Origin: a virus | Lineage: Duplodnaviria; Heunggongvirae; Uroviricota; Caudoviricetes | Virus record (IMG/VR): IMGVR_UViG_648276648_000006 | Length of the DNA stretch: 6,937 nt | Strand: one strand, 5' to 3' | In this document: piece after piece, positions 1 through 6,937 of the stretch | How the letters are laid out: each line of letters opens with the position of its first letter | Numbering within the stretch: the stretch's first letter is position 1 | The notes under the pieces: generated by a model | What the model saw: the letters and a program-made list of their open reading frames with translations, nothing else | Told to the model about the DNA's origin: nothing | Database searches by the model: none | Program-made: the position numbers and the translations under genes

Positions 1-1
1 A

Positions 2-259
2 GCCGGATTACTGGCATCAACAGGGAGCACAGGCGACTCGTATGACAACGCGATGGCTGAGAGCATCAATGGTCTTTACAAAGCGGAGGTAATACACCGT
101 AAGAGCTGGAAAAACCGTGCAGAAGTGGAACTGGCCACACTCACGTGGGTGGACTGGTATAACAATCGACGATTGCTGGGAAGGCTGGGCCATACTCCTC
201 CGGCAGAAGCAGAAAAAGCTCATTATGCTTCCATCGGAAACAATGATCTGGCAGCCTGA
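2..259 (+). CDS. IS3-family transposase OrfB (DDE integrase core), C-terminal fragment; 5' end outside window
   Basis: Frame from position 2 translates to AGLLASTGSTGDSYDNAMAESINGLYKAEVIHRKSWKNRAEVELATLTWVDWYNNRRLLGRLGHTPPAEAEKAHYASIGNNDLAA, stop TGA at 257-259. The SYDNAMAESINGLYKAE...WYNNRRLLGRLGHTPPAEAE stretch is the conserved C-terminus of IS3-family (IS629-like) OrfB. Confidence 0.9.
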   Translation, partial: AGLLASTGSTGDSYDNAMAESINGLYKAEVIHRKSWKNRAEVELATLTWVDWYNNRRLLGRLGHTPPAEAEKAHYASIGNNDLAA

Positions 260-276
260 GTTCACAGATAAAACAC

Positions 277-301
277 TCTCCAGGAAAATCGGGGCGGTTC
301 A
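277..301 (+). repeat. Right terminal inverted repeat of the IS3-family element (approximate extent)
   Basis: Lies between the transposase stop (259) and the element terminus ...GGTTCA (301). The exact IR length cannot be set without the left end. Confidence 0.45.
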
Positions 302-868
302 GACGGCGATATTACAGCGACCGTAACCTTTGCCGGACTGGACTGGGAATCAAAGGCCGATGATACGAATTTTATCAAAGGCGAACCTGTGGATAGTGCA
401 GGAAAGCTACGTTATTCGTTTAAGGAGGTTTCAGCAGTAAGCCTGAATGGTGTTGCCGGAGGTAACGGTTTTTGTATCGACAGTTTTGATATTCAGTTCG
501 ATAACAAACTCCAGACACAGCGTTGTATCGGGACTGGCTCGCCTTATGCAGGAGCAAATATTCCGACTACTTTTACACCGTCCGGTACGGTGACGCTTTC
601 ATGGTCTAAAGCCGCGTGGGAAATCTGGAGTAAAACACTGACTGGAGAAACAGTTCCGTTCAGCTTCACGCTTTCGAATGGAGAGGGGGCATACACTTTC
701 AGTTTCCCGAAGGTTCAGGTGTCAGGTGAATGGCCTGATGGGGGTAATAGCGACATTATCCAGGTTCAATTGAGCATTACCGCAGCAGATGAAGCACCTA
801 CGATAACCAGAAAAAAAAATTCCCCGGCTGCCGTGATCGCAAAAGCCAGTGCTGAGGCGATTAGTTGA
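302..868 (+). pseudogene. Phage major tail (tube) protein gene, 3' portion only; 5' part displaced by the IS insertion
   Basis: Frame is open from the IS junction to TGA at 866-868 (internal GTG at 389 is the ORF-track start). Translation DGDITATVTFAGLDWESKADDTNFIKGEPVDSAGKLRYSFKEVSAV...FSFPKVQVSGEWPDGGNSDIIQVQLSITAADEAPTITRKK... is protein-like. It sits directly upstream of the G/G-T chaperone pair, where lambda-like phages place gene V. No native start or RBS exists downstream of the IS. The functional name is inferred from position, not from recognised sequence identity. Confidence 0.6.
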
Positions 869-916
869 TTTTCCGTTATTCCTCCTGTGGTACTGCCCTA
901 CAGGGGGACGCATTGA

Positions 917-1378
917 ATGAGGTTATGGATGTTTATTCTTAATCAGAAAATTATCATTGGTGGAGAACGCTGGTTTACGCCAATGAAGGACTTAAAACCT
1001 GTAGACGGGTTAAAACTGTTGGTGGCAAGCAGCGATAACGATCAGTATCGCTCCCGTAATGCATTAATCCGTCGCCACATTGAGAAAATGGATGCCAGTT
1101 TGCACGTCGGAACGAAGGAGTTTGATATTTCAAAGGTTTCCGAGGTGGATTCTGTTGATGATTTACTCATTGATAATGCCGCTCGTTATCTGCTGAAAGA
1201 CTGGAAAGGGGTTGGTGAACTGGTTAATGGTGTTGAGGTTGCACTGGAATATACGGCAGAACGAGGGATCGCGCTGCTCAAGCAGAATCCAGAGTTGTAC
1301 TGGCAGATCCTTGCAGAAGCAGCCAGCATCGCCCAGGGTAAAGAGCAGCAGAAGCAGGATACGATAAAAAAGCCATAG
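917..1378 (+). CDS. Tail assembly chaperone, gpG-like
   Basis: 153-codon ORF between the tail tube gene and the tape measure gene. GGGGGA at 903-908 is a Shine-Dalgarno 8 nt upstream of ATG 917 (alternative ATG at 929). Ends in a slippery heptamer followed by an open -1 frame, the hallmark of G/G-T chaperone pairs. Confidence 0.65.
   Translation: MRLWMFILNQKIIIGGERWFTPMKDLKPVDGLKLLVASSDNDQYRSRNALIRRHIEKMDASLHVGTKEFDISKVSEVDSVDDLLIDNAARYLLKDWKGVGELVNGVEVALEYTAERGIALLKQNPELYWQILAEAASIAQGKEQQKQDTIKKP
1366..1372 (+). promoter_or_regulatory. Candidate programmed -1 ribosomal frameshift site (slippery heptamer A_AAA_AAG)
   Basis: A AAA AAG in the G zero frame (codons AAA 1367-1369, AAG 1370-1372), 2 codons before the G stop (TAG 1376-1378). 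The -1 frame is open from 1342 to 1686. Confidence 0.6.
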
Positions 1379-1686
1379 CTGCCCAGCGGTGGTTATCGGA
1401 GTTCGGGGGAGAAAGGGGGGAAAAGGCAAGATGGAAGCGAGAAAAACTCAGGTTGCCACCGATACCGGAACCAGAAATAGACCCGGTGCTTAAGGAGTTG
1501 TTGTACGCCTATTCGGTAATATCCCGTGCCCGACGTTATGCTGGAATGGCTGGGGTGCCTTTGCCTTTATCTCTGACAGAGATAAATGAATATTTAGCCA
1601 CTCATCCGGTATTGATTGAGCGCGATGAATTTGAAGCAGTGATCTTTGCACTGGATGACCAGTATTTTCAGGAGCAGTGTGTGTAG
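1369..1686 (+). CDS. T-like extension of the tail assembly chaperone, expressed as a G-T fusion by -1 frameshifting (not independently initiated)
   Basis: The -1 frame relative to G reads ...AIAAQRWLSEFGGERGEKARWKREKLRLPPIPEPEIDPVLKELLYAYSVISRARRYAGMAGVPLPLSLTEINEYLATHPVLIERDEFEAVIFALDDQYFQEQCV, stop TAG 1684-1686. No ATG start: the ORF-track start at 1453 is TTG. Position immediately upstream of the tape measure gene matches the conserved G/G-T arrangement. Confidence 0.6.
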   Translation, partial: KAIAAQRWLSEFGGERGEKARWKREKLRLPPIPEPEIDPVLKELLYAYSVISRARRYAGMAGVPLPLSLTEINEYLATHPVLIERDEFEAVIFALDDQYFQEQCV

Positions 1687-1806
1687 TTGTTAATTACGTA
1701 CACTCTGTTACAGAGATGTGATGGTGTCTTTAATTAAATCGATGATGCTCCTGGAGAAAAGCATTGCGTGGCCTCGTAATCGCTATATCTACTATTATGT
1801 CGCCTG

Positions 1807-1830
1807 AAACCCACTTCGGTGGGCTTTTTG
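1807..1830 (+). terminator. Candidate intrinsic terminator or stable RNA hairpin in the T-H spacer
   Basis: CCCAC (1810-1814), loop TTCG (1815-1818), GTGGG (1819-1823), then C and TTTTT (1825-1829). This is a 5-bp GC stem with a UUCG tetraloop followed by a U-tract, flanked by AAA/TTT that could extend the stem. Confidence 0.4.
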
Positions 1831-1849
1831 TTGTCTGGAGTTTTAATAA

Positions 1850-4800
1850 ATGGCAGAGCAAACCTCGCGTCTCGCAATAATTATTGATAGCACTGGAGCA
1901 AAAAATAATGCTGACAATCTGACCTCCTCATTAGTCAAAATGACGCAGGCCGGGGAAACTGCTGCAAATAGCGCAGGGAAAGTGACTAAGGCAACAGAAG
2001 ATGAGAAGAACGCGCTCGCAAAATTAAAAGCAGCTATTGATCCAGTTGGTGCCGCAATTGATACTGTCGGTCGACGCTATTCTGAATTAAAGAAATTTTT
2101 CGATAAAGGGCTTATTGATAAAGAAGAATATGAATTTCTTGTCCGTAAACTTAATGAAACCACAGAGGAATTGAGCGGGGTTGCGCAAGCGCAGAGAGAA
2201 GCCGAGAAGGCCGGAAAACTTGCTGCCGCCCAGCAGGAATCGCAGGCTCAGGCCTTTCAAAGAATGCTGGACAAGATCGACCCTCTGGTTGCGGCGCTAA
2301 GAAATCTTGAACAACAGCAGGATGAACTTAATGCTGCGTTTGCATCCGGGAAAATAAATGGTTCTCAGTTTGAGAATTATAGCCGAAAAATACAGGAAAC
2401 ACGGCGAGAGCTTACCGGAGAGGCTCAGGCAGAGCGAGAAGCAGCAAAAGCGCATGATGAACAGGTTGCTGCTTTGCAACGTCTGATTGCTCAACTTGAC
2501 CCTGTCGGAACTGCTTTTAATCGTCTGGTAGAACAACAGAAACAGCTCAATGAAGCAAAAGCTAAGGGGATGCTCTCTCCTGAAATGTATGAGGAACTTT
2601 CTGGAAAACTTCGTGCTATGCGGAGTGAGCTTGAGGTTACTCAATCTCAATTAAGCAAAACCGGAATGTCGGCAAAACAAACGGCTTTTGCTATGCGCAT
2701 GTTGCCTGCACAAATGACGGATATTGTTGTTGGGTTGTCCACTGGTCAGTCGCCTTTTATGGTGTTAATGCAGCAGGGCGGCCAGCTAAAAGATATGTTC
2801 GGTGGGATTGGCCCGGCGATCAAAGGTGTTGGTTCTTATGTGCTGGGATTAATTAATCCTTTTACCCTGGCCGCAGCAGCCGTTGGCGTCTTAGGGCTGG
2901 CTTACTATAAAGGCTCTCAGGAGCAGGACGAATTTAATAAATCTCTTATTCTTACCGGAAATCAGTTGGGGACAACCAGCGGGCAATTGGCCGATATAGC
3001 TCAACGTGCCGGGAATGCGGCTGATTCGACAACTGGCGCTGCGGCGGCAGTATTAAACCAGCTTGTGCGTTCGGGAAAGGTAGCGAGCAGTTCGCTGGAG
3101 CAAGTGACGACAGCGATAGTAAAAACGAGCGAAGTAACAGGAATATCAACCGAACAACTGGTTAATGACTTCAATGAAATTGCAAAGGATCCTGTCAGTG
3201 CCATATCAAAACTTAATGATCAGTACCATTTTCTGACAATTGCGACTTATAACCAGATTAAGGCGCTACAGGATGAAGGGAACCAGCAGGAGGCCGCCCG
3301 CATTGCGACAGAAGCATACTCATCCTCAATGATCCAGCGCACCAACCAGATTAAAGAAAATCTTGGTTATCTTGAGACTGCATGGAAAGCTGTCGCAGAC
3401 TCCGCAAAATGGGCATGGGATTCCATGCTGGATATTGGCCGTGAGGCCTCCCTTGATCAAAAAATCTCAGATGTTCTCCGTCAAATTGATGAAATAGAAA
3501 AAAATACCCGACCCGGAGTTTTCGGGTTAGGTGGCATTGGAGATGGCGGAGCTCAAAATAAAAGGCTGGCACGATTAAAGCAGCAATTGGGCGTACTTCA
3601 AGCAGAAAAAATTGCTCAGGACGTACTAAATTCATCAATAAACGATTACAACAAGCGACAACAGGAAGGAATTGAACTCAGACAGAGAGCAGATGCCTTT
3701 TCAAAACAATATCAGACCCGGGAGCAGCAGAGAGCTAGTGAACTTGCAAAACTGGAAAAACTAAAGAGTCAGTATTCAAAGGAAGAATATAATAATCTTA
3801 TCGCTCAAATAAATGAGCGTTATAAAGATCCAAAGCAACCAAAGGCGAAAGGTTATTCGGATGATGCTGCCCAACGAATGATTGATCATCTGAATCAACA
3901 GAATGCGTTACTAAGTTCACAAACTGAATTAACCGTTAAATTAAGTTCCTCTGAACAGGAACTGGTTAAGTGGCGTCAGCAGATTGCCGACCTGGAGTCA
4001 CGACCGTCATCGAAATTAACCAAGGATCAGAAATCGCTTCTCTTACACCGGGAAGAAATAACCGCGTTGATGGAGAAAAATGTTGCGATTGAAAAAAATA
4101 ACAGGCTAATCAAGGAATCCGCCGAAATAGCTGCATGGCGTGATTCATTGCAGGCTTCGATTGATAATCGTCAACAGGGGTATGATATTCAGATTGCTGG
4201 TTATGGGGTTGGCGATAAAAATCAGCAACGCCAGCAGGAATTACTGCGGATTGAACGTGAATATAACAATCAGCGTCTGCAACTTGAACGTGACTATGCA
4301 GATAAATCCCGTGGGATGTCAAATCATGTTTTTCAGGAGAAAATGCAGGCTCTGAATGATGCTCTGGAACGAGAAAAAGAAATTGTCAGACAGAAAAACG
4401 AGCAGCTCGATATTCAGGCAGGAGACTGGGTTAGTGGTGCCTCCCAGGGATTCAATAACTGGCTGGATGACACTAAGGATATCAGTGAGCAGATAAAATC
4501 AACCACGACTCAGATGTTTGATGGAATGACCGATGCGCTGGGTGATTTTGTCACGACAGGCAAGGCAAATTTTCGTTCTTTCGCTACTTCCGTGATTTCG
4601 GATCTTAGTCGAATAGCATTAAAGGCTTCAATTACTCGGATTTTCGACAGCATTAGTAACAGTTCTTCGGGGGGGATTTTAGGAACTATCGGGAGTGCTA
4701 TTAGTAAATTTATTCCGAATGCAAAGGGCGGTGTTTATGAGTCTCCGTCATTGAACACGTATTCGAACGGTATTTATGATTCCCCGCAATTTTTTGCTTT

Positions 4801-5083
4801 TGCAAAAGGGGCTGGTGTTTTTGGTGAGGCTGGTCCGGAAGCCATTATGCCATTAACACGAACTTCCGATGGTTCTCTTGGTGTCAGAGCTATTAATAGT
4901 AAAAGTGGTAATGGAGGCGGAGATATTACCTATGCCCCTGTATACCAAATCACTATTCAAAATGACGGCCAGAATGGAGAGATTGGCCCTCAGGCAATAA
5001 AAGCACTTATGGGGATGGTTGATCAGCGGGTGCAGGGCAATCTGTTAAATATGCGACGTGATGGGGGAATGTTAAGTGGCTAA
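1850..5083 (+). CDS. H: Tail length tape measure protein (lambda gpH family), 1077 aa
   Basis: GGAG at 1837-1840 upstream of ATG 1850. Translation contains ...[41 protein letters not shown]... and C-terminal ...[20 protein letters not shown]...[10 protein letters not shown], matching lambda gpH motifs (MRMLPAQFTD...GGQSPWLILLQQGGQVKDSFGG; ...NNDGTNGQIGPAALKAV...MRDGGLFSG). Long coiled-coil-like, Q/E/K-rich central region is typical of tape measure proteins. The stop overlaps the M start. Confidence 0.95.
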
Positions 5084-5408
5084 TACGGAAGAATTTCACT
5101 GGTTACCAGAGGATGGAATGAAAACAGAAAATAAACCATCGATAAAAACTGTAAGATTTGGCGATGGTTATGAGCAACGAAGTCCAAATGGACTTAATCA
5201 TTCTCTGCGCGTTTTCACCTGTGATTTCAAAGTTGAGGCGAATGAACGTGATTCATTTGAAAAATTTTTAGCCCGGCATGAAGGCTATAAATCTTTTTTT
5301 GGCGCCCGCCTGGTATTAACAGAAAAATCAGAGTGGTGTGTCGAACGTGGTCAGCGACAGAACATATCACCTATACCGATTTTTCGTGTCAGTTTGACGA
5401 AGTGGTGA
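5076..5408 (+). CDS. M: Minor tail protein M (lambda gpM family), reading frame disrupted near the 3' end by an apparent 1-nt deletion in a T7 run
   Basis: GTG 5076 follows an in-frame TAA and overlaps the H stop by 8 nt. N-terminal part ...[35 protein letters not shown]...[14 protein letters not shown] matches lambda gpM (FRWKVKPGM...VRKVRFGDGYSQRAPAGLN...FLEEHGGWKSF). After the T-run at 5294-5300 the gpM-like C-terminus ([39 protein letters not shown]) is in the other frame and stops at TGA 5411-5413. Confidence 0.85.
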
Positions 5409-5412
5409 TCTG

Positions 5413-6111
5413 ATGCAGGACATACAACAGGAAACGCTGAATGAATGCATTCGTGCGGAGCAGTCGGCCAGCGTGGTGCTCTGGGAAATCGACCTGACCG
5501 AGGTAGGCGGGGATCGCTACTTTTTCTGCAATGAGCAGAACGAGAAAGGAGAGTCTGTCACCTGGCAGAGTCGGCAGTATCAGGCCTATCCCATTCAGGG
5601 GAGTGGATTTGAGATGAACGGCAAAGGTGCCAGTGCAAGGCCAACGCTGAAAGTCTCTAATCTGCACGGCATGGTCACCGGGATGGCGGAAGACCTGCAG
5701 AGTCTGGTCGGCGGAACGGTGGTCAGGCGTAAGGTTTACGCCCGTTTTCTGGATGCGGTGAACTTCGTCAACGGAAACAGTGACGCCGATCCGGAGCAGG
5801 AGGTGATCAGCCGCTGGCGTATTGAGCAGTGCAGCGAACTGAGCGCGGTCAGTGCCTCCTTTGTACTGTCCACGCCGACGGAAACGGACGGCGCTGTTTT
5901 TCCGGGGCGCATCATGCTTGCTAATACCTGCACCTGGACCTATCGCGGTGATGAGTGCGGTTATCACGGTCCGGCGGTCGCGGATGAATATGACCAGCCG
6001 ACATCCGAAATCACGAAGGATAAATGCAGCAAATGCCTGAGTGGCTGTAAGTTCCGCAATAATGTCGGCAACTTTGGCGGCTTCCTTTCCATTAACAAAC
6101 TTTCGCAGTAA
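5413..6111 (+). CDS. L: Minor tail protein L (lambda gpL), 232 aa
   Basis: Translation MQDIQQETLNECIRAEQSASVVLWEIDLTEVGGDRYFFCNEQNEKGE...CSKCLSGCKFRNNVGNFGGFLSINKLSQ is near-identical to lambda gpL as I recall it, with the same length. ATG 5413 overlaps the inferred true M stop (TGATG). Confidence 0.96.
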   Translation: MQDIQQETLNECIRAEQSASVVLWEIDLTEVGGDRYFFCNEQNEKGESVTWQSRQYQAYPIQGSGFEMNGKGASARPTLKVSNLHGMVTGMAEDLQSLVGGTVVRRKVYARFLDAVNFVNGNSDADPEQEVISRWRIEQCSELSAVSASFVLSTPTETDGAVFPGRIMLANTCTWTYRGDECGYHGPAVADEYDQPTSEITKDKCSKCLSGCKFRNNVGNFGGFLSINKLSQ

Positions 6112-6116
6112 ATCCC

Positions 6117-6860
6117 ATGACAGAGACAGAATCAGCGATTCTGGCGCACGCCCGGCGATGTGCGCCAGCGGAGTCGTGCGGCTTCGTGGTGAGAACGCCG
6201 GAAGGGGAAAGATATTTTCCCTGCGTGAATATCTCCGGTGAGCCGGAGGCGTATTTCCGGATGGCTCCGGAGGACTGGCTGCGGGCAGAAATGCAGGGTG
6301 AGATTGTGGCGCTGGTCCACAGTCACCCCGGTGCTCTGCCCTGGCTGAGTGAGGCCGACCGGCGGCTGCAGGTGCAGAGTGATTTGCCGTGGTGGCTGGT
6401 CTGCCGGGGGGCGATTCACAAGTTCCGCTGTGTGCCACATCTTACCGGGCGGCGCTTTGAGCACGGGGTGACGGACTGTTACACGCTGTTCCGGGATGCT
6501 TACCATCTGGCGGGAATTGAGATGCCTGATTTTCATCGTGAGGATGACTGGTGGCGTCACGGTCAGAATCTCTATCTGGATAATATGGAGGCAACGGGGC
6601 TGTATCAGGTGCCGTTGTCAGCGGCGCAGCCGGGCGATGTGCTGCTGTGCTGTTTTGGTTCATCGGTGCCGAATCATGCCGCTATTTACTGCGGCGACGG
6701 CGAGCTGCTGCACCATATTCCTGAACAACTGAGCAAACGAGAGAGGTATACCGACAAATGGCAGCGACGCACACACTCCCTCTGGCGTCACCGGGCATGG
6801 CACGTATCTGCCTTTACGGGGATTTGCAACGATTTGGCCGCCGCATCGACCTTCGTGTGA
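6117..6860 (+). CDS. K: Tail assembly protein K (lambda gpK family), with JAMM/MPN metalloprotease-like and NlpC/P60 domains
   Basis: Translation MTETESAILAHARRCAPAESCGFVV...EIVALVHSHPGALPWLSEAD (JAMM motif HxHx7Sx2D, His codons at 6318-6326)...GVTDCYTLF (NlpC/P60 Cys, about 6477-6479)...VPNHAAIY. Near-identical to lambda gpK as I recall it. Starts 5 nt after the L stop. Confidence 0.95.
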   Translation: MTETESAILAHARRCAPAESCGFVVRTPEGERYFPCVNISGEPEAYFRMAPEDWLRAEMQGEIVALVHSHPGALPWLSEADRRLQVQSDLPWWLVCRGAIHKFRCVPHLTGRRFEHGVTDCYTLFRDAYHLAGIEMPDFHREDDWWRHGQNLYLDNMEATGLYQVPLSAAQPGDVLLCCFGSSVPNHAAIYCGDGELLHHIPEQLSKRERYTDKWQRRTHSLWRHRAWHVSAFTGICNDLAAASTFV

Positions 6861-6937
6861 AAACGGGGCCGAAGCCATCCGGGCGCTGGCCATGCAGATC
6901 CCGGCGTTTCGTCAGAAACTGAGCGATGGCTGGTATC
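6758..6937 (+). CDS. I: Tail assembly protein I (lambda gpI family), N-terminal part; frame disrupted at a G4 run; 3' end outside window
   Basis: ATG 6758 gives MAATHTLPLASPGMARICLYGDLQRFGRRIDLRVKTG, matching the lambda gpI N-terminus, and overlaps K by 103 nt. After GGGG at 6865-6868 the gpI-like sequence AEAIRALAMQIPAFRQKLSDGWY continues in the +1 frame, while the starting frame hits TGA at 6920-6922. Confidence 0.85.

Follow-up and report, generated by a model that had tools for sequence, protein, structure and literature searches.

A mosaic joint at the M/L tail gene boundary of a decaying Rac-family prophage of Escherichia coli

We analyzed a window of 6,937 nt (IMG/VR record IMGVR_UViG_648276648_000006), all features of which lie on the strand given (+), and found that it represents the tail region of an E. 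coli lambdoid prophage, a common Rac-family element that is decaying. Within this region, the structural genes change character in the interval 5391-5435, which straddles the stop codon of the tail tip gene M and the start of gene L at 5413. The breaks in identity to phage lambda, in GC and GC3, and in synonymous divergence (dS) coincide within ~45 nt of the M stop/L start, and the genes on either side of it have different relatives. These observations uphold the modular recombination at the M/L gene boundary that was proposed in the first-pass annotation. We therefore consider it very probable that the structural arm of the Rac family is a chimera, in which a non-lambda shaft block has been joined to a lambda-type tip cassette by recombination in 5391-5435.

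Composition and ancestry on the two sides of the M/L boundary

To the left of the joint, H and M are only distantly related to their lambda counterparts. The tape measure gene H (1850-5083), which belongs to a non-lambda (Rac-type) module, encodes 1077 aa with the Pfam domains TMP_2, TMP_4, and Tape_meas_lam_C. Gene M (5076-5408) closes the AT-richer module and is frameshifted in the window; when repaired, it gives an end-to-end match to Pfam Phage_min_tail (E = 1e-31, 109.8 bits) and is 41.9% identical to lambda M over 105 aa. It had been suggested that H and M are diverged from lambda and similar to it only at the level of motifs. The divergence is evident, but the second part slightly understates the relationship, as both are full-length homologues at the protein level, with no detectable similarity at the nucleotide level.

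To the right lie L (5413-6111; 232 aa), the first gene of the lambda-type module, K (6117-6860; 247 aa, with JAB/MPN and NlpC/P60 domains, Pfam Prok-JAB and NLPC_P60), and the 5' part of I (6758-6937). L matches Pfam Phage_tail_L with an E-value of 4.5e-98 (327 bits), and the matches of repaired M, L, and K to their Pfam families are all full-length and above the gathering score. As anticipated in the first-pass annotation, these proteins are nearly identical to those of lambda (93.5% for L, 95% for K, and 94.9% for the first 39 aa of I). The lambda tail tip shares with the window the gene order M-L-K-I, the one-base M/L overlap, and the 103-nt K/I overlap, and its L, K, and I proteins are 93-95% identical to those of the window, whereas its M protein is only 42% and its H protein 28% identical (the latter over 855 aa). 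RefSeq lambda K lacks one base that the window K has, which shortens it to 199 aa; in resequenced lambda, K is also 247 aa long. A long antisense open reading frame (5389-6438) was not taken as a gene and was treated as a by-product of the high GC3 of L and K.

The first-pass annotation had described H and M as AT-richer and L, K, and I as GC-richer, and the composition bears this out. GC content is 0.450 in H, 0.384 in M (5076-5291), 0.554 in L, and 0.594 in K, and GC3 is 0.389 in H, 0.26-0.35 in M (0.264 over 5076-5291), 0.665 in L, and 0.661 in K. The maximum-likelihood position of a single GC change point is 5451 (2-log-likelihood interval, 5395-5467), with a GC content of 0.452 to its left and 0.581 to its right; the log-likelihood ratio is 38.5, compared with a maximum of 7.9 in 200 permutations. 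GC3 in lambda itself is uniform, at 0.65-0.69 across H, M, L, and K.

Similarity to lambda breaks at the same place. By blastn with a word size of 7, nucleotide similarity to lambda is confined to 5391-6937 (92.8%), and none is detectable to the left of 5391. It begins 22 nt upstream of the ATG of L, so that the switch is tighter than the ~100 nt around the M/L overlap within which it had been placed by eye. In a sliding window, identity to lambda rises at ~5400 from 0.5-0.65 to 0.85-0.98. At synonymous sites, divergence from lambda has reached saturation in the C-terminal part of H and in M (pS, 0.80-0.81), whereas the dS values of L and K are only 0.38 and 0.15. This pattern reflects different ancestry rather than different constraint.

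The expectation that the two halves would have different best relatives also held. Outside the prophage family, the nearest nucleotide relatives of H-M are Klebsiella prophages (~70%) and Stx phages (~68%), and those of L-K-I are lambda and lambda-type phages derived from ECOR strains (93-96%). Within the family, M proteins are 97-99% identical; beyond it, no relative exceeds 49% (among 50,697 phage records and 185,579 genomes). An HK97-like origin of either module was considered and rejected, as the HK97 match covers only 167 nt of H at 73%; HK97 has the same gene order, H-M-L-K-I, with M, L, and K proteins that are 32-37% identical on both sides of the joint.

The prophage that carries the joint

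Identification of the window as Rac-family is based upon its near-identity to the structural remnants of the Rac prophage of E. coli K-12. Positions 1027-2784 are 99.0% identical to K-12 Rac over 1760 nt, a match that covers ydaY and the 5' part of the tape measure gene, the first ~935 nt of H being 99% identical to ynaA/tmpR. K-12 Rac, which retains ydaY, ynaA/tmpR, lomR, and stfR, is deleted from the middle of the tape measure gene to lom, and consequently lacks M, L, K, I, J, and the joint; the window copy has kept M, L, K, and I, but its tube gene is interrupted by an insertion sequence (IS) and its M and I genes are frameshifted. Although the window stops short of the ends of the prophage, a 100% identical copy in FDAARGOS_1058 adjoins trkG and a ParB/ynaK-like gene, and an intact relative, L001, adjoins trkG and a ynaK-like ParB gene, just as K-12 Rac does. 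Judged by its sequence, the element in the window thus appears to be the full-length form of K-12 Rac.

The first 301 nt of the window (1-301) are the right end of an IS3-family element (IS1203/IS629-like, and annotated as IS3/IS1203 in matching genomes), with the C-terminus of its transposase at 53-259 (Pfam rve_3/rve_2). The terminal repeat of the IS ends at 301, with the terminal sequence GGGGCGGTTCA at 291-301, and the match to the reference prophage begins exactly at 302. The IS truncates the tail tube gene, whose 3' part is found at 302-868 (Pfam Phage_tube_2) and which is intact in L001 (963 nt, 11605-12567). Downstream is ydaY (917-1686; so annotated in relatives, and 99% identical to K-12 Rac ydaY), which comprises a G-like tail assembly chaperone (917-1378) and a T-like extension in the -1 frame that is open from 1342 to 1686. 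A slippery site, A_AAA_AAG, is located at 1366-1372, and we checked both the phase of the heptamer and the open frame. The tail assembly chaperone family PF23812 scores on 1453-1686 with an E-value of 3e-4, which is below the Pfam cut-off.

From 302 to 6937, the window is 100% identical to the FDAARGOS_1058 reference prophage except for two single-base differences, one in each of the homopolymer runs at which M and I are shifted. The frameshift that had been noticed just upstream of the joint is real: a run of seven T residues at 5294-5300, ~90 nt upstream, replaces a run of eight in intact relatives (L001, L002, and L011). As a result, M ends at 5408 in the wrong frame, whilst an unshifted M would reach 5413, where its stop overlaps the L start (TGATG). 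In gene I, a run of four G residues at 6865-6868 (five in L001, L002, L010, lambda, PhiR49_2, and PhiR55_1) shifts the frame to a stop at 6920-6922. One might suppose that the M frameshift has some functional connection with the joint, or that it is programmed or phase-variable, given that it sits in a slip-prone T run so close to the joint and that strain 789 also has T7, with its M annotated as frameshifted. We consider this very improbable. Prophages that share the joint carry T8 and an intact M, and the shorter T7 length occurs in 1 of the 60 joint matches listed from a spread sample of E. coli genomes. Furthermore, the shifted frame stops at 5408 and loses the conserved C-terminus of M; a programmed ribosomal frameshift does not fit relatives that have T8 and a single intact open reading frame, and a T7 allele that lacks that C-terminus. 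The second slip in I and the IS in the tube gene complete a pattern that fits decay or read errors. We conclude that M was shifted by a homopolymer slip that is independent of the joint and has no causal link to it, and that may be a sequencing error. The IS insertion is decay that came later and is unrelated to the joint, and so are the two frameshifts, unless these are homopolymer sequencing errors.

The joint is not private to the window: it is old, and fixed in a Rac-family prophage that is widespread. It was found in 712 of 5426 complete E. coli genomes (~13%), as well as in Shigella flexneri and E. ruysiae, and the 723 genomes that contain the left probe include all 712. When these 723 genomes were searched for a Rac-type H-M with some other right-hand partner, the exceptions seen were GPEC1405, in which a deletion fuses an M remnant to J, and partial matches. 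In L001, the lambda-like block begins with L and reaches into J (17091-21662; 4.6 kb, 92% identical), and nothing from terminase to M matches lambda. In Fels-1, a lom-like gene is inserted exactly between M and L. The first-pass annotation had named uniform identity to one reference phage, with no GC step, as the observation that would speak against a junction. Single records do match 302-6937 uniformly at 98-100%, but these are copies of the same prophage family, the whole of which inherited the joint, and the GC step and the lambda break persist. The phage records with matches across the whole window (vB_EcoS-...) are prophages predicted by PHASTER from Illumina assemblies, rather than isolated virions, and are therefore no evidence that the element is active.

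Origin of the joint

In the account we favor, the left block (tube, ydaY, tape measure, and M; ~45% GC) is of non-lambda origin, extending in the intact copy upstream through the head genes to terminase, and the right block is a lambda-type tail-tip cassette, L-K-I-J (~57% GC). Recombination joined them at, or within ~20 nt of, the overlap of the M stop and the L start. The position at a gene boundary follows from the fact that a working tail results only from an in-register exchange between the isofunctional M-L regions of two phages. A short block conserved for its function, which runs from the end of M through the translational-coupling overlap (TGATG) into the first codons of L, probably assisted the exchange. 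The GC-rich cassette would be the imported piece, because lambda is uniform across H-M-L-K and the prophage is not, and because the terminase-to-M region of L001 has no match to lambda. An unrecombined AT-rich parent (Rac-type H-M followed by an AT-rich L-K-I) did not turn up when M was compared by tblastn with 50,697 phage records, nor in a scan of 185,579 species-representative genomes, so the direction of transfer is read from composition alone. The mechanism may have been relaxed homologous recombination, of the kind catalyzed by Rad52-type phage recombinases, between co-resident lambdoid elements. No Chi site, which could act as a RecBCD hotspot near the joint, is present in the window, and a scan for promoters and terminators, which would mark a moron or the edge of a transcription unit, found nothing at 5391-5435, with counts close to the shuffled expectation.

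The conserved block at the boundary (5391-5427) takes in seven codons at the end of M, the overlap of the M stop and the L start, and five codons at the beginning of L. These 37 nt are 68-84% identical between lineages (78% to lambda), compared with 33-57% for M just upstream. The comparison that informs most about the crossover is with PhiR63_1, whose H and M are of the lambda type. Its sequence remains lambda-type as far as 5427, after which it is identical to the window over 5428-5780 (353 nt), where lambda differs at 41 sites. PhiR63_1 records a second, independent crossover, at 5428-5435, within the same 45 nt. The block may be a crossover substrate, but constraint on the M C-terminus, on the L translation signals, and on the L N-terminus explains it equally well.

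We weighed three other explanations of the joint. That it is an assembly chimera or some other artefact of the window sequence is practically inconceivable: the window does have two single-base homopolymer deletions that resemble sequencing errors, but the identical joint recurs in two other species and in 712 complete E. coli genomes, each assembled independently. Vertical descent in one genome, with fast evolution of H and M and strong purifying selection on L, K, and I, would be in keeping with the rapid divergence of tape measure genes and the wide conservation of L and K tail-tip proteins among lambdoid phages. It is nonetheless scarcely credible, as constraint at the protein level cannot yield saturated synonymous sites on the left against a dS of 0.15-0.38 on the right, a GC3 step from 0.35 to 0.67, or a transition that takes less than 50 nt.

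A stronger competitor is illegitimate recombination at a random position, with selection against broken M or L genes placing the survivor at the gene boundary and the 37-nt block being a by-product of function. Illegitimate recombination is one of the two standard models (PMC3233612), traces of flanking homology are found in only ~30% of recent mosaics (PMC3945230), and the boundary block is both short and only 78% identical to lambda. Against this, M, a 42% homologue of lambda M, and the C-terminus of H are homologous in register on both sides, so that diverged homology was available for recombination, and a second crossover inside the same 45 nt, as in PhiR63_1, would be rare if breakpoints were random. 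We regard this explanation as possible but unlikely.

An extension of the homologous-exchange account is that the 37-nt block is a recurrently used recombination linker, through which shaft (V to M) and tip (L to J) cassettes are swapped between E. coli lambdoid phages and resident Rac-type prophages, with a tip pool that is shared and homogenized among co-resident prophages and a shaft that is private. The PhiR63_1 crossover at 5428-5435 fits this idea, as does the lower within-family identity to the right of the joint (94-95%) than to its left (98.6-98.8%). So does the median of five matching places per genome for the whole window versus one for an H-M-centered probe, the extra matches coming mostly from L-K-I and the IS element. 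We put this proposal forward tentatively, and on balance doubt it.

Lambdoid mosaicism and what the joint means

Susskind and Botstein are said to have set out the modular theory of lambdoid phages, and Juhala, Hendrix and colleagues reportedly described mosaic module joints in comparisons of HK97 and HK022.

A recent mosaic has been described as a segment of >90% nucleotide identity to another phage or prophage beside DNA without such identity (De Paepe et al., 2014; PMC3945230). The lambda-type segment of the window, at 92.8% over 5391-6937 with nothing upstream, and its 4.6-kb counterpart in L001 at 92%, are of this kind; the boundary falls at a gene boundary, and dS, GC3, and the nearest relatives indicate different histories on its two sides. 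Like other lambdoid mosaic joints, this one has a >90% segment abutting unmatched DNA, a site at a gene boundary, diverged homologues in the same order, and a defective prophage as partner. Nothing essential differs; its own details are that a shaft of Rac type is paired with a tip of lambda type and that the crossover interval is mapped to within 45 nt, neither of which we found in the papers searched. The joint is real but textbook, an instance of ordinary lambdoid module shuffling.

Beyond annotation, the joint is of little importance, save as a clean, well-resolved case of lambdoid mosaicism at a translationally coupled gene boundary. For the annotator, the GC step is genuine and explained, and homopolymer slips (decay or read errors), rather than biology linked to the joint, account for the frameshifts in M and I. 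For the Rac family, the window would show K-12 Rac as it was before the loss of its tail genes. The 353 nt of PhiR63_1 that are identical to the window indicate ongoing exchange of tail-tip DNA between defective prophages and active phages of the lambda type.

Gene content and identity of the element

The switch at the M/L boundary, where AT-richer, Rac-type H and M give way to GC-richer, lambda-type L, K and I, is a mosaic joint of modules from lambdoid elements, a type of feature better known than any other in phage genomes. A listing of ORFs, scans against Pfam and BLAST searches showed that the plus strand of the window carries a row of siphovirus tail genes. This row is preceded by the end of an IS3-family element (IS1203/IS629-like; 1-301), whose transposase C-terminus lies at 53-259 and which terminates at 301 with GGGGCGGTTCA. 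This element cuts the tail tube gene, the 3′ part of which remains (302-868), and is followed by ydaY, a G-like tail chaperone gene (917-1378), the tape measure gene H (1850-5083), M (5076-5408), L (5413-6111), K (6117-6860) and the start of I (6758 onward). Since the insertion breaks the tube gene, the window's prophage copy is defective; an IS at this position was found in none of the complete E. coli genomes examined.

From 302 to 6937, the window is identical, but for two missing bases, to a prophage of E. coli FDAARGOS_1058 that adjoins trkG and a ParB/ynaK-like gene, and in which the gene order is terminase, portal, P22-family capsid, tail tube, ydaY, tape measure, M, L, K, I, J, lom and stf. 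At 99.0% identity, window 1027-2784 also matches Rac, the cryptic prophage of K-12, across ydaY and the 5′ portion of ynaA, the remnant of the tape measure gene. Together, these two matches indicate that the window derives from a full-length relative of Rac. Within ydaY, a slippery heptamer of the canonical -1 type (A_AAA_AAG, 1366-1372) lies in the correct phase, and the -1 frame is open from 1342 to 1686, with a weak match (E 3e-4) to PF23812, a family of tail assembly chaperones; region 917-1686 is predicted to be a programmed frameshift arrangement of the G/GT type. A 349-aa antisense ORF on the minus strand (5389-6438) crosses L and K, and is most likely a by-product of the high GC3 of the coding strand rather than a gene.

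Different ancestry of the two sides

In a 300-nt sliding window, GC is 0.38-0.53 up to ~5300 and 0.55-0.62 from ~5400. GC and GC3 are 0.450 and 0.389 in H, and 0.384 and 0.264 in M (5076-5291), as against 0.554 and 0.665 in L, and 0.594 and 0.661 in K. A single-change-point likelihood scan of 302-6937 placed the break at 5451 (2-log-likelihood support 5395-5467), with GC of 0.452 to its left and 0.581 to its right, and a log-likelihood ratio of 38.5 compared with at most 7.9 across 200 permutations. The compositional difference noticed in the first-pass annotation is therefore real. The sole match to lambda (blastn, word size down to 7) is window 5391-6937, at 92.8%, and identity to lambda climbs at ~5400 from 0.5-0.65 to 0.85-0.98 in a sliding plot. 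At the protein level, H is 28% identical to its lambda counterpart (855 aa aligned) and M, with its reading frame repaired, 41.9% (105 aa), whereas L, K and the first part of I are 93.5% (232 aa), 95% (199 aa) and 94.9% (39 aa) identical. This bears out the proposal that only L, K and I are near-identical to lambda, and the actual switch is even nearer to the M/L overlap than the ~100 nt that had been estimated.

The K gene of RefSeq lambda (NC_001416) is annotated as 199 aa because one base is missing relative to the window and PhiR63_1 (GGAGGC[G]TATTTCC), at ~14258-14276 (~5765 in L003, our lambda locus) and opposite window ~6250; in that record, the first 45 residues of the JAB domain of K are in a different frame. 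In resequenced lambda (PV340536.1), K is annotated as 744 nt, as is the K of the window.

Unequal constraint on the proteins, without recombination, could be considered as the source of this pattern. However, by Nei-Gojobori estimates, synonymous divergence from lambda is saturated in the final 300 codons of H (pS 0.80) and in M (pS 0.81), and falls to a dS of 0.38 in L and 0.15 in K. Protein-level constraint can neither lower synonymous divergence in such a manner nor move GC3 from 0.35 to 0.67, and the sequences left and right of the joint therefore differ in ancestry. With dS, GC3 and identity all breaking at M/L, modular recombination at a gene boundary was the right interpretation. In the intact FDAARGOS_1058 prophage, the 14 kb from terminase to M have 43-51% GC and lack any lambda match, while a 4.6-kb block from L into J (17091-21662 of that copy, L001) is 92% identical to lambda, with 55-61% GC. 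In lambda itself, GC3 is uniform, at 0.65-0.69 in M, L, K and the C-terminal part of H, which, together with the contrast inside the intact prophage, suggests that the imported piece is the tail-tip cassette, L into J.

The relatives of the two halves, listed with the same prophage family set aside, also belong to different lineages. The left part (1850-5390) matches Klebsiella prophages at ~70% along the initial 1.5 kb of H, and long-tailed Stx phages at ~68% along the closing ~290 nt of the gene; for the middle of H, no nucleotide relatives were found beyond the Rac-type family. The tape measure gene is patchy in its nucleotide relatives. The nearest M protein beyond the family is 49% identical, and in a scan of species-representative genomes, Shigella flexneri and Escherichia ruysiae are the only ones with Rac-type M (97-99%), no other match exceeding 44%. 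The right part has matches in several hundred records of lambdoid phages, most of them at 80-99%, with PhiR63_1 (95.9%) the best beyond the family. HK97 matches neither side.

The M/L seam

We aligned the L-start region of the window with those of lambda, PhiR49_2, PhiR55_1 and Stx1_2499. Unrelated sequence ends, and a conserved block begins, at 5391 (AGTTTGACGAAGTGGTGATCTGATGCAGGACATACAA). This block, which comprises the final seven codons of M, the TGATG stop/start overlap and the opening five codons of L, is 68-84% identical across lineages, as compared with 33-57% for the preceding 40 nt of M; compared with Stx sequences, it stands as an island between two less similar stretches. PhiR63_1, an inducible ECOR13 phage of the lambda type, was the comparison that told us most. 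Its H and M are lambda-type, and up to 5427 it differs from the window in the same way as lambda, but over 5428-5780 (353 nt of L), where lambda differs at 41 sites, it is 100% identical to the window. Its crossover is therefore located between 5427 and 5436, and the 353-nt stretch is a recent exchange patch with its left end at the seam. Based on these alignments, we place the joint within 5391-5435, a 45-nt interval that contains the exchange points of two lineage pairs. The boundary is variable in other lambdoid phages too: in Fels-1, M and L are parted by a lom-like gene inserted exactly there (2954-3472 of its locus, L008), and in PhiR55_1 the M stop and the L start are uncoupled by a 10-nt insert (2839-2849 of its locus, L007). 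The M/L boundary is evidently a tolerated, reused seam.

Over 6.6 kb, the sole differences between the window and FDAARGOS_1058 are two one-base homopolymer deletions, with zero substitutions. In M, the window has T7 at 5294-5300, where the FDAARGOS_1058 prophage has T8; the T8 allele continues to the conserved C-terminus and overlaps the L start, whereas the T7 allele stops at 5408 in a different frame. In I, G4 at 6865-6868 replaces the G5 of the reference prophage, lambda, PhiR49_2 and PhiR55_1, and the shifted frame reaches a stop at 6920-6922. The M frameshift does lie near the joint, as first described, ~90 nt upstream and inside the AT-rich module. However, the same joint occurs with intact M in other prophages, so the frameshift is not causally tied to it; among 60 spread rows of joint-probe matches, only strain 789 has the shorter run, together with an adjacent C-to-A change and an M annotated as frameshifted. 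Two indels with zero substitutions suggest long-read homopolymer errors, although recent decay is likewise plausible, given that the insertion in the tube gene marks this copy as defective.

Age and origin of the joint

A joint probe (window 4800-5470) matched 723 of 5426 complete E. coli genomes, mostly with one copy per genome, and at least 80% of it was covered in 712 of the 723; the exceptions seen included an M remnant fused to J by deletion. It follows that the joint is long established in the prophage family, rather than an event of the window's own sequence. The first-pass annotation held that uniform identity to one reference, with no GC discontinuity, would speak against a junction. 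Single database records do match 302-6937 uniformly, because the joint is inherited family-wide, but the GC step and the break in lambda identity stand. Relative to the window, the Shigella flexneri and Escherichia ruysiae copies have 98.6-98.8% identity on the H-M side of the joint but only 94-95% on the L-K-I side, and the whole window has a median of 5 matching places per genome; we suggest that the tip genes may keep exchanging with other resident lambdoid prophages.

Gene-boundary joints have been attributed either to homologous recombination at short conserved boundary sequences or to illegitimate recombination, after which selection retains recombinants with intact genes (PMC3233612). 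De Paepe et al. showed that lambda gains DNA from defective prophages, including Rac, via relaxed homologous recombination by Rad52-type recombinases, with recent mosaics being segments of >90% identity, ~30% of which have flanking homology (PMC3945230). The joint in the window falls within that definition of a recent mosaic; in-register, diverged homology lies to its left, and the seam itself holds a conserved block, features that favor homology-assisted exchange. Conservation of the block is equally open to a functional explanation alone, which leaves room for illegitimate recombination as the origin of the joint, but we regard that route as the less likely one and homology-assisted exchange as the probable one. 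Neither a Chi site nor a promoter or terminator signal was found at the joint. We propose that the Rac-type and lambda-type modules may have been exchanged with the help of homology at the M/L seam.

The host prophage family has already been sequenced and annotated hundreds of times, and the joint is nothing new in kind. The detail added here concerns the interval 5391-5435, the Rac-family identity of the element, the extent of the probably imported block (L into J), the population frequency of the joint and its independence from the frameshift. The sole mildly novel angle is the conserved M/L seam as a possible recurrent crossover site.
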